Shown: positions 47,122 to 50,992 of the stretch, one piece after another
How the letters are laid out: the number at the start of each line of letters is the position of its first letter
Numbering within the stretch: position 1 is the first letter of the stretch
Source of the DNA: an uncultured Ignavibacteria bacterium
GTDB lineage: Bacteria; Zixibacteria; MSB-5A5; JAABVY01
Assembly (NCBI GenBank): GCA_964496505.1
Contig: CAZBZV010000004.1
Coordinates: 5,811 to 69,810 of the forward strand
Reading direction: 5' to 3'
DNA: 64,000 bases
Notes under the pieces: model-generated
Told to the model about the DNA's origin: nothing
Database searches by the model: none
Seen by the model: only the letters and a program-made list of their open reading frames with translations
Program-made: the position numbers and the translations under genes

Positions 47122-47432
47122 GATGCAGCCTCCTTTTCTGGAATGGCCAGCTTTCTAATATCAGAGTAGCAGACACCTACTTTCTCACGTTCGAATTGCT
47201 GGCCGCCTGCGCATGTGGCGATTATGGTTATCCCTTCATCATACATGTCCAGAATTTCTTTGGCTTTTTCAGGCGGCACACCTCTTAACGCACCGCCTAT
47301 GATATTGCCCTTGTTGTCGCCTAAAGCGAGAGCCGTAAAACATCTACGATTACAAAATTTGCAGTATGGTCCCATCAATACACCTCCTTCAATTCCCCGG
47401 CCTCCGTATCCAGGACAATCTTTTGTTCGCAC
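47118..47432 (-). CDS. Hypothetical Cys-rich protein
   Basis: Contains the motifs CPGYGG and CKFCNRRC. Confidence 0.3.
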   Translation of the reverse strand: MRTKDCPGYGGRGIEGGVLMGPYCKFCNRRCFTALALGDNKGNIIGGALRGVPPEKAKEILDMYDEGITIIATCAGGQQFEREKVGVCYSDIRKLAIPEKEAAS

Positions 47433-50400
47433 CTGTCGGCCAGCTCTTTCCGATGTGTGACTAATAGCAGTTTCTCCAGGCCTCCCAGCTCCATGCGCTT
47501 CTGGAGCATCGCAAATAATGCCGAGGCCCGGAAGTCCCGGAGGGCGCCATCACATTCATCTACCATCGCGAATTTGGGATTGAAGTCTGCCAGCTGTGCG
47601 CGGTAGAGCGATATCGCGGCTTGCATGGCTACGATAAACGGGACCTTCTGGCCGCCTGAGAGCAGCTTGATCGGCCGTTCTCCGGATTCATCAATAACTA
47701 TGATATCGAAGGTCTCGATCTGGCCCTTGCCGTCGGCTTTATCCTTCAGAGTATCGAATTTGATCTGCCATCCCGAACCGAACTCGGAGAGCAGGTCGTT
47801 GGCGTATTCGGATATCTGAGGAAGGGCGTTCTCGAGTAATAAAGCCGGAATGCCGTTGCGGCTGAAAGCGGTCTGGAGGATGGAGTAATCAGAATAGTCG
47901 CGCTTCTTTCCGGCGAGACCCGCTCCCATTTCCTCAGTCTTTTTCTTCAGCTCATCCAGCTCCTTGAGCTTGGCTTCGGCCGCAGCTTTTTGTTTTTCGG
48001 CCTGGAGGATTTGAGCGTCAGCGTTGGCAATATGATCTTTCAGTGATTTAATCTTGATATTGCAGTTCCGAATCTGTTCATCGATTTCGGAATCAATTTC
48101 CTCTTTAACAATATCTCGCTTCGTTGTTAGCTCGTCGATCGCCCTGGCAAACTCCGGCATAGCCTTATCGTATTCGGCCTGCTGTTCGGACAGGGTCTTC
48201 TCTGCCTCCTCGAGCTGTGGTTTCAATTCAGTTAAGGTCGCTTCGGCAACATCAAGCCTACTCTTTTCAGCGATCCAGTCTTTATTATTGGCCTCGGAAG
48301 GAATTCCGGAGAGTTGTTCCAATAAAGAATCGCGCTCGGTTATGAGAGGCTTTTTCTTATTCTCTATTTCAGCAATCCCTTTATCTCTTTGCTCAATAGC
48401 GAATATCATGTCGCAATTGTGGTGATCGATAATGCCCTTGGTATCCGGAATCTTTTCATCGGCCTCGATCGCATTGGCAATCAGAGGACATTCCTGGCAT
48501 TTCTCGACCGCCCATTGAAGGGCGATGATATCGCCTGGCTTATCCTCGTAGTTATCGAAATTCTGACAGGGCACATCCTTCAGCTTTAGAGCCAAATCTT
48601 TCTGTGTTTTAAGCGATTCCTCAGCATGGGCCTTCTCGATTTTGGACTGGTTAAAATCAGTCTGCCATTTCTGCTTAACTGATCTCGCTTCGGTTTCAAG
48701 AGCCGTCAGCCGGGTCTCAAGTTCCTCAATCTGTTTGCGAACCTTCTCCGCTCGCTCCTGATTTGCGGCCATCTCCAGAATCTTATCCTTTTGGTCAATC
48801 AGCTTCTGATTCTCCGCAATACGGCCTTTAAATGATTTGATCTTGGCTTCATGCTTCGGCTTCCACGATTCGAATTTGGATTTGGTGGTCAGTTGGTTTG
48901 AGGAAACCTCCTCAAGACGCTGTTTGATTTCCTCGAGTTGTTTCTTTGAAGATTCCTGAGTGGCCGCCTTTTTCTCGAGCTCCTTTAGTTTGGTATTGGC
49001 CTGCTCGAGTTCCCTGTTGTATCTGTCTTTGCTCGCCGTGTATTCAACTATAATCTGGCCATGCCTCCCAAGAGAATCCTCGACCACGTCCCTTTCCATA
49101 AGAGTCTTCTCATTCTCTTCGATCTTCGATTCATCGATCTTGATCTCGGACTGAATCTGATTCGCAAATTCCTTGGCCTTATCAGCAATTGCCTGGAATT
49201 CATCGAAGCCCAGCATCTGATAGAACATATCTTTGAGCTCGGCATTGGATTTGTCGATAAGCCCGCTTGTGCCCTGCACCTGGTAGGTAGCCTGCTGGAA
49301 CAATTCCGGGGATCCAAACAGAGCCATGACTATCTTTTTGTAAGAAGGTTTCTTCCCATCATTCAGGGCCTGCCAGTCCTCGCCATTGCGCTGATAAGCG
49401 TAATATTCAGCCCGTTCTCTGACAGCATCGATCTTCAGCAGGAACATGTATTCCTTGCCGTCAATCTCGACTGTCAGCTCGCGGCAGGAATCCTCCAGCC
49501 GGAAATGATTCGCCAGCTTGGCGTTCCAGCCGTTGACGCCGTCGTAATAGAATGACCACGGATACGGATGCAGGTTATCAAGAGTGGTGGTTTTTCCGGC
49601 ACCGTTGTCACCATCGAACAGAATCATATCGCCGTTAAAATTATCGAAGTTGATCTTTATTTCGTCCGTCCACTGGATGCCCTTGGAGCCGCGCAGTCTC
49701 AGGGATTTCAAGCGGATAGTTCCCCGGGCCTGCGTTTCGGCCTTCTCATCCAACAGAACTGAGGTCTCGATCTCGTTCAGTTTTTCGATTATAGGATTGG
49801 TCAGCTCGGTATCGGTAGTCTCAGCCCATGCTTTCAAACGATCTTCATTTGATGTTGATTCCGATATGGCCTCGCACCTCTGTCTGGTTTGGGGCTTTAT
49901 GATCTTCTCAAATTTGACGGAGTTGGGAGTAAGCTCATTCCACTCAAGCCACTTCTCGATGTGATCCTCATTGACCATGTCCTTGGCTTCAGGAGGAATA
50001 TGCAGTCTGATTCTCGTATCGGCCTGGTTGCAGGCATTAGGATCGAAGTCGGGAACGCCAACAGGTTCTCCGGTTTCCTTGTCGATAAAACGGAAGGGCT
50101 GATTGTCACTATCTTCCGGATAATATATCAGGTCGACATCGACCATGGCCGGAAACGGCGTCGGAATCCGCTCCAGCTCCAAAATCTCATTGGCATTGAC
50201 CTCGGCATAAAGAATTGAATGCTGATCCTTCTCCCCCCAATTGTGCGGGAACGGGCTTCCGGAATAGATGATATTCTCGCCGATCTGCTGAGGTTTGTGA
50301 ATATGACCGAGGCAGTTTATCACTGCCCCGGCTTCCTCGATGTCGGCGGAAGATATAATGATATCACCGCCTGTCATAATTTGACCGGTTGGGGTCTCGG

Positions 50401-50992
50401 AGCCATATACCGTAAAGTGCCCGAGGAGGATCGGTATTATCCCGGCATCCTTGGCTTTCATCTTTTCGAATTCAGCCCTAAATCCCATCAAAAGGCTCCG
50501 GACCAAACCGGCCGCTTCTACGTCTGCCTGATCGGGAGGTAAATCTATGCCGCGCTCTTTAGCCCAACTCATGATTCCGGATTTGGTCAGGCCCGGAACC
50601 GGAAACATTACAAGAGATTTATTCTCGCTTGCCTTCGATCCGAAATACATCTGGAATGGATTGGGTCTATCGAGAACGAAAATATTGTGGTATGAAGTAT
50701 GTACGGATTTGAAAATGTCTAATGAGCCCGGCCTGTCATGTGAAGGCGTGCCCGGAATCATATAAACATCATGAAAATTACTGAGCCTCTGGATATGCTT
50801 TATTACTGCATAAAGCGGGCTGGCCTCGTTGACGGCCACCTCGCCATCCCAGATATCGCCCGGAATAACAATAATATCCGGTTCCTTATCCAGGGCCACT
50901 TGGTAAAGATGTTCAAAGAACTTCTCTACCTTATCGATATTATCCTTCCTGGCATGGATATCTGCTGTATGTAATAGCTTTAATTTATGCAT
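47375..50992 (-). CDS. Single-chain SbcD-SbcC (Mre11-Rad50-like) nuclease-ATPase fusion
   Basis: N-terminal calcineurin-like phosphoesterase motifs LLHTADIHAR, PGDIWDG and LGHIH. Walker A FDGDNGAGKTT at ~aa 470. Long coiled coil with a CQECP zinc hook. C-terminal ABC signature LSGGQK and Walker B MVDECD, plus the H-loop VTHR. Start set at MHKLKL (50992), which has a GAGGAGG RBS 7 nt upstream. Confidence 0.75.
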   Translation of the reverse strand: MHKLKLLHTADIHARKDNIDKVEKFFEHLYQVALDKEPDIIVIPGDIWDGEVAVNEASPLYAVIKHIQRLSNFHDVYMIPGTPSHDRPGSLDIFKSVHTSYHNIFVLDRPNPFQMYFGSKASENKSLVMFPVPGLTKSGIMSWAKERGIDLPPDQADVEAAGLVRSLLMGFRAEFEKMKAKDAGIIPILLGHFTVYGSETPTGQIMTGGDIIISSADIEEAGAVINCLGHIHKPQQIGENIIYSGSPFPHNWGEKDQHSILYAEVNANEILELERIPTPFPAMVDVDLIYYPEDSDNQPFRFIDKETGEPVGVPDFDPNACNQADTRIRLHIPPEAKDMVNEDHIEKWLEWNELTPNSVKFEKIIKPQTRQRCEAISESTSNEDRLKAWAETTDTELTNPIIEKLNEIETSVLLDEKAETQARGTIRLKSLRLRGSKGIQWTDEIKINFDNFNGDMILFDGDNGAGKTTTLDNLHPYPWSFYYDGVNGWNAKLANHFRLEDSCRELTVEIDGKEYMFLLKIDAVRERAEYYAYQRNGEDWQALNDGKKPSYKKIVMALFGSPELFQQATYQVQGTSGLIDKSNAELKDMFYQMLGFDEFQAIADKAKEFANQIQSEIKIDESKIEENEKTLMERDVVEDSLGRHGQIIVEYTASKDRYNRELEQANTKLKELEKKAATQESSKKQLEEIKQRLEEVSSNQLTTKSKFESWKPKHEAKIKSFKGRIAENQKLIDQKDKILEMAANQERAEKVRKQIEELETRLTALETEARSVKQKWQTDFNQSKIEKAHAEESLKTQKDLALKLKDVPCQNFDNYEDKPGDIIALQWAVEKCQECPLIANAIEADEKIPDTKGIIDHHNCDMIFAIEQRDKGIAEIENKKKPLITERDSLLEQLSGIPSEANNKDWIAEKSRLDVAEATLTELKPQLEEAEKTLSEQQAEYDKAMPEFARAIDELTTKRDIVKEEIDSEIDEQIRNCNIKIKSLKDHIANADAQILQAEKQKAAAEAKLKELDELKKKTEEMGAGLAGKKRDYSDYSILQTAFSRNGIPALLLENALPQISEYANDLLSEFGSGWQIKFDTLKDKADGKGQIETFDIIVIDESGERPIKLLSGGQKVPFIVAMQAAISLYRAQLADFNPKFAMVDECDGALRDFRASALFAMLQKRMELGGLEKLLLVTHRKELADRCEQKIVLDTEAGELKEVY

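Follow-up and report, generated by a model that had tools for sequence, protein, structure and literature searches.

The 64,000-nucleotide stretch analysed here (the window), from contig CAZBZV010000004.1 of an uncultured bacterium placed by GTDB in the Zixibacteria, carries between 1.8 and 53 kb a myovirus-like temperate phage region encoded on the minus strand, and within it a single open reading frame (ORF) that joins an SbcD (Mre11)-like nuclease to an SbcC (Rad50)-like ATPase. All features of the window given below lie on the minus strand unless stated otherwise. The sbcD-sbcC fusion ORF, as read from the ORF list, its translation and its ribosome-binding site (RBS), occupies 47375..50992 and encodes 1205 amino acids (aa) plus stop, with the stop codon at 47375-47377 and the ATG at 50990-50992. 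In its longest reading the frame begins at 51031. Translation likely starts at the ATG at 50992, given the GAGGAGG RBS 7 nt upstream and the 8-nt overlap with the stop of the preceding gene (ATGCATAA). The NCBI gene call on the same contig is the identical 1205-aa protein.

The N-terminal part of this protein, residues 1-245 (50258..50992), is a calcineurin-like nuclease domain of the Mre11/SbcD type with motifs I to V. It was recognised by Pfam Metallophos (residues 4-234, 35.2 bits against a cutoff of 21.5 bits, which it passed) and by a PDB sequence search in which residues 3-282 matched T. maritima Mre11 (2Q8U) and E. coli SbcD (6S6V), and the assignment is consistent with family conservation, with structure prediction by AlphaFold2 (AF2) and with structure comparison by Foldseek. 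The five motifs are D11-x-H13, G45-D-IWD49 (GDIWD, 45-49), G81-TPSHD86, H192 and G229-H-I-H232; the third, GTPSHD, is a family-specific variant of GNH[DE]. The ATPase continues in the same frame as two lobes delimited by PDB matches, motifs and AF2: the N-terminal lobe, residues 424-596 (49205..49723), holds Walker A (GDNGAGKTT, 461-469) and the Q-loop residue Q573, and the C-terminal lobe, residues 1043-1205 (47378..47866), holds the signature motif LSGGQ (1111-1115), Walker B with the D-loop (1144-1149; DECDG at 1145-1149, with D1145-E1146 and D1148) and H1180. P. furiosus Rad50 matched both lobes in the PDB search, the Rad50 matches of the C-terminal lobe extending over 1049-1202, and the PHROG family phrog_77 ('SbcC-like subunit of palindrome specific endonuclease') matched residues 357-1194 with an E-value of 1.5e-51. 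An earlier note on this DNA had proposed one 1205-aa ORF with a full nuclease motif set followed by a Rad50/SbcC ATPase with signature motif and Walker B, and the ORF, Pfam, PHROG, PDB and motif evidence agree on this description. Across a 43-sequence family alignment (~25% identity) the catalytic residues of both nuclease and ATPase are all invariant or nearly so, and we therefore conclude that purifying selection acts on both activities.

A family set was assembled from scans of IMG/VR and GTDB genomes, followed by local ORF and hidden Markov model (HMM) analysis. It holds 87 complete members, 57 fused and 30 split, from hosts that include Spirochaetes/Treponema, Clostridia, Bacteroidota, Chloroflexi and others. 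The nuclease gene of the split relatives generally stops at profile positions 386-397, and the ATPase gene of the closest ones starts at 393-405; projected onto the window, the gene ends and starts of the 30 split relatives (profile 386-405) fall at residues ~409-431, or ~49.70-49.77 kb, inside the interval of about 49.6-49.8 kb named for the junction in the earlier note. Profile positions, together with a comparison of protein and DNA sequences to those of the closest split relative, L088, locate the fusion junction at residues ~410-426 (49715..49765), where a linker, SVLLDEKAETQARGT, is followed by Ile425 at the position of the start methionine of the split relatives' SbcC. The sbcD-like gene of L088 ends in ...GGAGGCGGTCATGCGTCTTAA, and its sbcC-like gene, which encodes MRLKSLRLRG, starts at an ATG embedded in and overlapping the sbcD stop, with a GGAGG present. 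At the same point the window reads GGA ACT ATC CGC TTG AAA TCC CTG, that is, G-T-I-RLKSLRLRG in frame, with no RBS and no start codon, the codon of Ile425 being ATC where L088 has the start ATG. Comparing the two stretches of junction DNA, we therefore interpret the fusion as an end-to-end merger of two translationally coupled genes. Such a merger of overlapping genes would have involved loss of the sbcD stop and of the sbcC RBS and ATG, the latter changed to ATC (Ile425), would have left a linker of ~15 residues, and would have abolished the separate synthesis of SbcC.

A split form is also found in a cultured temperate phage, Leptospira phage LE1 (NC_048892), which encodes in succession gp76 (317 aa), the metallophosphoesterase gp75 (387 aa), the SMC-family ATPase gp74 (779 aa), a small gene and ParB, with 4-nt overlaps. 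LE1 gp75 aligns to residues 4-407 of the fusion (E 7e-12) and gp74 to residues 461-1184 (E 2e-29). The gp76-gp75-gp74 module thus has the same order as that of the window, an approximately 320-aa protein followed by nuclease and ATPase (and in LE1 by the small gene and ParB); it is collinear with the fusion and shares its 'VPC...C-L-L' type of coiled-coil apex. It differs in that the nuclease and ATPase are separate polypeptides of 387 and 779 aa, and the identity is only ~25%. Split versions are present on conjugative plasmids of Burkholderiales as well, sometimes with a gene inserted between the halves. In some split relatives, from Chloroflexi genomes and a Cupriavidus plasmid, an extra gene of 171-456 aa lies between the nuclease and ATPase genes (7223-8590 in L018, 6685-8019 in L022 and 5623-6138 in L166), and this inserted gene sits exactly at the point where the fusion is joined.

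Could the single frame be a sequencing or assembly artefact that joined adjacent sbcD and sbcC genes? Close relatives do have split versions whose stop and start overlap, so that an indel of 1 nt would suffice to fuse them. The same uninterrupted frame is found in independent assemblies, namely as P0001/P0336 from metagenome-assembled genomes of Zixibacteria (69% identity, with the identical 'ARGTIRLKSLRLRGSKG' across the junction) and on the IMG/VR contig L086 (61% identity), and the replacement of the SbcC start methionine by isoleucine together with the disappearance of the internal RBS amounts to more than a bare frameshift. Fused forms are moreover abundant. Beside the 57 fused forms among the 87 complete members, a word-indexed search of 5.8 billion proteins returned ~50 full-length homologues of 1134-1252 aa, with 99% query coverage and 25-28% identity, and when 1.84 billion cluster representatives were searched exhaustively with the profile, the best 150 matches listed all had E<1e-190, and at least ~120 span the whole profile in one stretch, as proteins of 1070-1300 aa. 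Distinct 50%-identity clusters of fused proteins in metagenomes number well over 100. With no frameshift at the junction, and with relatives at 61-69% identity and the NCBI call all keeping the frame, we regard an artefact as effectively refuted and give it next to no probability.

These fused proteins are poorly annotated in public databases, being labelled 'hypothetical protein' or 'exonuclease SbcC'; a full-length cluster mate of the 69% relative, HEQ98847.1 (1213 aa), is called 'hypothetical protein'. Megablast of 40-60 kb found no close phage relative in GenBank, and in a tblastn search of GenBank phages no record covered 80% or more of the fusion, LE1 alone being matched, with 25% identity over the ATPase part. 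A different fusion architecture may be represented by P0290 (1541 aa), whose Rad50-like part (profile 445-1154) lies at residues 851-1539, behind an N-terminal region of ~850 residues instead of a nuclease part of ~420 residues.

The relationship between fused and split forms was approached with neighbor-joining trees with bootstrap, using p and Poisson distances. Bootstrap values of 100% were obtained for the window with L086, for these two with the split L088, and for a large fused clade of 24 taxa; the window and L086 joining the large fused clade without L088 received 0%. On these groupings, fusion in the lineage of the window was probably an event separate from that in the large fused clade; a fission in L088 is the alternative.

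A model of the monomer (residues 1-1200), built with AF2 from the family alignment, has a mean predicted local distance difference test (pLDDT) score of 73, with values mostly of 80-93 in the nuclease domain (1-245) and of 84-93 in the C-terminal lobe. Searched against the PDB with Foldseek, it gave C. thermophilum Rad50 as the top match and also retrieved the T. maritima Mre11 and E. coli SbcD complexes; the nuclease domain aligned to Mre11/SbcD structures with TM scores of 0.6-0.7. Residues ~259-360 (49913..50218) are modelled as a beta-rich, capping-like domain with strands at 259-331, and the Foldseek alignments to nuclease-plus-capping structures of Mre11 cover 340-390 columns. Next comes a helical segment, residues 369-420 (49733..49888), in which AF2 places helices at 369-378, 382-393, 399-414 and 416-420, with block-mean pLDDT of 84-92 over 381-410 and of 64-74 at either end. 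The C-terminal ends of the separate SbcD-like proteins in LE1 and L088 align to this segment, and the predicted model aligns over 430-443 columns to T. maritima Mre11 with its tether (3tho_B) and to E. coli SbcD in Rad50-bound complexes; the putative role of the segment would be that of a helix-loop-helix binding the base of the Rad50 coiled coil. The order predicted by the model, nuclease, capping-like domain and putative helical tether, would match that of the two-chain Mre11/SbcD enzymes. Between the two ATPase lobes the model has an ascending coiled-coil arm, residues 597-805 (48578..49204; continuous helices 597-631 and 634-805), and a descending one, residues 849-1042 (47867..48448; helices 849-893, 904-955 and 963-1042), and it predicts that this long antiparallel coiled coil brings the N- and C-terminal lobes together.

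The apex of the coiled coil, residues 806-848 (48449..48577), was analysed through its cysteine positions and a comparison of the 87 members. It contains C809 (in VPC) and C832-x-x-C835 (CQEC), in the pattern VPC(809)-x22-C(832)QEC(835)PLI (48488-48574, residues 807-835), which makes it a non-canonical hook. The canonical CP[TV]CG hook is found in 52 of the 87 members, and an apex of the form [PG]C-x(4-36)-C-x-[FLI][LI] in 25, including the window, L086, L088 and LE1. The CxxC zinc hook described in the earlier note is accordingly correct in that CQEC is present at 832-835, but the cysteine pair conserved in the clade of the window is C809 and C835, while C832 is shared with L086 alone.

Immediately upstream of the fusion lies a gene for a 326-aa partner protein (50985..51965), delimited by its sequence and by the positions of its homologues, which matches only phrog_13782, a family of unknown function whose homologues are all labelled 'hypothetical'. 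Its stop overlaps the ATG of the fusion by 8 nt, so the two genes are translationally coupled. Homologues of 315-385 aa with overlapping stop and start codons occur immediately upstream in 36 of the 57 fused and in 17 of the 30 split relatives; LE1 gp76 is its equivalent by alignment only (24% identity). Searches of Pfam and NCBIfam, phmmer and profile searches of the PDB and tblastn against phages returned no match for the partner, and its AF2 model, with a mean pLDDT of 45, is too poor to use. The 'hypothetical' gene that occupies the upstream position on the Burkholderiales plasmids has no detectable homology to it.

Proteins of this kind have been described before. Yoshida, Claverie and Ogata (Virol J 2011; PMC3175470) reported Mre11/Rad50 fusions in Mimivirus (R555), in Bacillus phage 0305phi8-36 and on C. 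kluyveri plasmids, and further ones in Ruminococcus, Anaerostipes, a Deferribacter megaplasmid and several eukaryotes. By their account the order N-Mre11/Rad50-C is structurally compatible with the T. maritima complex, where they estimated a gap of ~28 Å, bridgeable by 9-12 residues; the fusions are non-monophyletic, and repeated fusion in viruses from operon templates was proposed (PMC3175470). Compared by published description, the fusion of the window resembles theirs in being a single chain with an N-terminal Mre11-like nuclease and a C-terminal Rad50-like ATPase joined after the C-terminal helices of Mre11, in its association with viruses or mobile elements and in its recurrent, non-monophyletic origin. 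Its family differs in belonging to temperate tailed phages of uncultured Zixibacteria, Spirochaetes, Bacteroidota and Clostridia, in usually having a conserved upstream partner gene and, in the clade of the window, in its Cys-loop-Cys apex. Our literature search for later descriptions of phage SbcDC fusions returned nothing beyond the 2011 paper. The kind of fusion has therefore been known since 2011, and the gene of the window is a further example of one that is common in uncultured phages: the novelty implied in the earlier note falls, both to that publication and to the more than 100 fused 50%-identity clusters, and the search for other fused homologues that it recommended yielded at least ~120 full-length cluster representatives. 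The refutation that the note itself foresaw, fusions already being common, thus largely applies, poor as their annotation is.

With the two-chain enzymes E. coli SbcCD, T. maritima and P. furiosus Mre11-Rad50 and T4 gp47/gp46, the fusion shares the two folds, the full sets of catalytic motifs and, as predicted, the antiparallel coiled coil. Those enzymes are encoded by two genes, form two chains and have a canonical CxxC zinc hook; the fusion differs from them also in its motif III (GTPSHD instead of GNH[DE]) and in scoring under the curated NCBIfam cutoffs. The canonical Mre11-Rad50 complex is an M2R2 assembly. A benefit from fixed 1:1 stoichiometry, suggested earlier for the covalent link, adds little to this picture, the split forms being already translationally coupled and the canonical complex being M2R2, and escape from regulation of host SbcCD or from phage-encoded inhibitors found no support and is pure speculation.

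The genomic setting bears on what the enzyme might do. Beside the fusion, the phage region encodes baseplate, tape measure, sheath, protease, portal and large terminase proteins, and also a Mom-like protein, DnaC-like and DnaD-like loaders, ParB-like, patatin and DUF5131 proteins and a HerA-like ATPase. The early operon starts at ~52.8 kb, divergent from a CI-like repressor gene at 53455-53910, and in the relatives the module lies in equivalent early regions with integrase, CI, SSB, HU, ParB, DnaB and RusA, so that 'prophage recombination/replication module' is a fair description. Phage SbcCD homologues are regarded as belonging to the core apparatus of recombination (PMC7824862), and T4 gp46/47 acts in recombination-dependent replication (summarised in PMC3175470).

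Given the observed architecture, the conservation of both active sites, the collinear split relatives, the anatomy of the junction and the operon context, we consider it likely that the gene encodes a functional single-chain Mre11-Rad50 (SbcD-SbcC) ATP-dependent nuclease acting on DNA ends and hairpins, within the early replication/recombination operon of a myovirus-like temperate prophage. With the M2R2 complexes of E. coli SbcCD, T. maritima Mre11-Rad50 and T4 gp46/47 as models, two copies of the fusion would form a homodimer in which the two N-terminal nuclease domains pair and the two ATP-binding cassette (ABC) heads, each made of residues 424-596 and 1043-1205, clamp DNA upon binding ATP. 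The two antiparallel coiled-coil arms, of ~200 residues (roughly 30 nm), would meet at the cysteine-containing apex, and the segment 369-420 would tether the nuclease to the base of the coiled coil of its own chain. After induction the enzyme would act on DNA ends, resecting or opening them for the phage's recombination-dependent replication or repair, a role which homology and context make the most likely one, and it would probably work with the translationally coupled upstream protein.

Several observations weigh against this interpretation. Cutoffs were missed for the curated SbcD models (TIGR00619, 66.1 bits against 77.65; PRK10966, 32 against 450), for the curated SbcC/Rad50 models (PRK03918 for Rad50, 86 against 700; TIGR00618, 22 against 478) and for the Pfam ATPase models (AAA_23, 23.8 against 27; SMC_N, 10 against 40); the fusion is therefore a divergent relative, and not an orthologue or equivalog, of the characterised enzymes, and public annotation is uninformative because the protein stays under the NCBIfam and Pfam thresholds for SbcD, SbcC and Rad50. 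The structural model is that of a monomer, which leaves tether docking and a sufficient linker at the level of prediction, the confidence at the apex is below 50 (a poor model), and the apex itself is non-canonical. No recombinase of the RecA, RecT or Erf type was recognised adjoining the fusion in the window, so that of the 'prophage recombination module' named in the earlier note the early replication/recombination operon of a temperate-phage-like region stands, but without a classical recombinase recognised nearby. Enzymatic activity, the homodimeric state, the role in phage replication and recombination and the involvement of the partner are, finally, what we infer.

Three other readings start from the same gene. 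The one nearest to the single-chain nuclease proposed above adds to it, as a three-part machine, the upstream partner as an obligate cofactor or recombination partner and takes the Cys-loop-Cys apex as a substitute for the CxxC zinc hook that had not been described before; we hold it rather doubtful, and if it were true the partner might correspond in function to Nbs1/Sae2 or be a new annealing protein. Less probable still is a prophage-carried anti-phage defence or exclusion nuclease, in which an SMC/Rad50-like sensor would be coupled to an effector nuclease as in Lamassu, Wadjet or MADS. In PADLOC the C-terminal lobe and the coiled coil do partially match mad3 (E 7.5e-13), LmuB (1e-7) and JetC, the SMC-like matches of Foldseek include Lamassu and JetABC, a HerA-like ATPase 2 kb downstream matches the HerA and mad8 models, and the same operon encodes a patatin-like phospholipase, a common defence effector fold. 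These matches cover only generic ABC/SMC or P-loop parts, whereas the best structural and sequence matches are to Rad50 and Mre11/SbcD. Detection of MADS requires MAD6, MAD7 and MAD8 (10.1101/2023.03.30.534895), and a scan of ten neighbouring proteins gave a mad8-like ATPase match alone, next to the partial mad3 match of the fusion itself, which falls short of that set. The gene also stands, in the window and in its relatives, among replication genes of a co-directional early lytic operon and not in the position of a moron expressed in lysogeny, and most relatives lack the HerA-like and patatin genes. Membership in MADS, Lamassu or Wadjet was consequently rejected, the matches being at the level of generic ATPases.

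The remaining reading, which we judge very improbable, sees in the fusion an SMC-like DNA organiser or partition factor acting with the large ParB_N protein encoded nearby, the nuclease being secondary. It draws on the position of a 525-600-aa ParB_N protein directly or closely after the module in L002, L005, the P0004 locus and LE1 (where the protein has 310 aa), and ~7 kb downstream in the window. The five nuclease motifs, all invariant or nearly so across the family, speak instead for a nuclease that acts catalytically; the ATPase resembles Rad50 and not an SMC protein with a hinge; and the ParB_N-domain proteins of phages are heterogeneous, which makes adjacency alone weak evidence.

The neighbouring genes have features of their own. 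The ParB_N/HTH_ParB protein follows or lies near the SbcD/SbcC module at 38856-40652 in the window, at 16532-18205 in L002, at 11454-13079 in L005 and as gp72 in LE1, a recurrence that suggests a linked function. The HerA/FtsK-type ATPase (DUF87), at 43196-45187 in the window and at 15360-17162 in relative L167, has weak matches to archaeal HerA, anti-phage HerA and mad8; its synteny is conserved in the Zixibacteria relative of the window, and most relatives lack it. It recalls the archaeal mre11-rad50-herA-nurA cluster, but an archaeal-type cluster was rejected, as no NurA-like protein was found among the neighbours and HerA is absent from most relatives. An unusual cargo gene of the early operon, that for the patatin-like phospholipase (40671-41618), lies between DUF5131 and the ParB-like gene, and its product could serve as an effector in defence or counter-defence. 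The Mom-like DNA-modification protein (32253-32972; phrog_1384, E 3.5e-54), just upstream of the large terminase gene, is encoded by an ORF whose 3' end is overlapped by a tRNA-Gly(TCC) predicted by ARAGORN (32281-32356). At the distal end of the tail/baseplate block, a Fib_succ_major (Fibrobacter succinogenes major domain) protein (1830-2666, E 5e-54) may act in receptor binding or host range; it hints at a host of the FCB group. Beyond the phage region, the base composition (GC content and strand skew) changes at ~54 kb and a type I-C CRISPR-Cas operon at 57158-63656, on the plus strand, with Cas3 (including an HD domain), Cas5d, Csd1/Cas8c, Cas7 and Cas4, marks host DNA from 57 kb on; no CRISPR array was found within the window.

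Together, these results indicate that single-chain Mre11-Rad50 nucleases are common and largely unannotated in temperate phages of uncultured bacteria. Since their fused and split forms interconvert at one precise junction, they amount to a natural experiment in the tolerance of Mre11 tether and Rad50 head to being covalently linked, and the single-chain enzyme could be a convenient object for structural and biochemical work. The value of the locus itself is modest: it provides a well-resolved case of gene fusion and fission in a phage nuclease module, and a pointer to the partner protein and to the cysteine apex.

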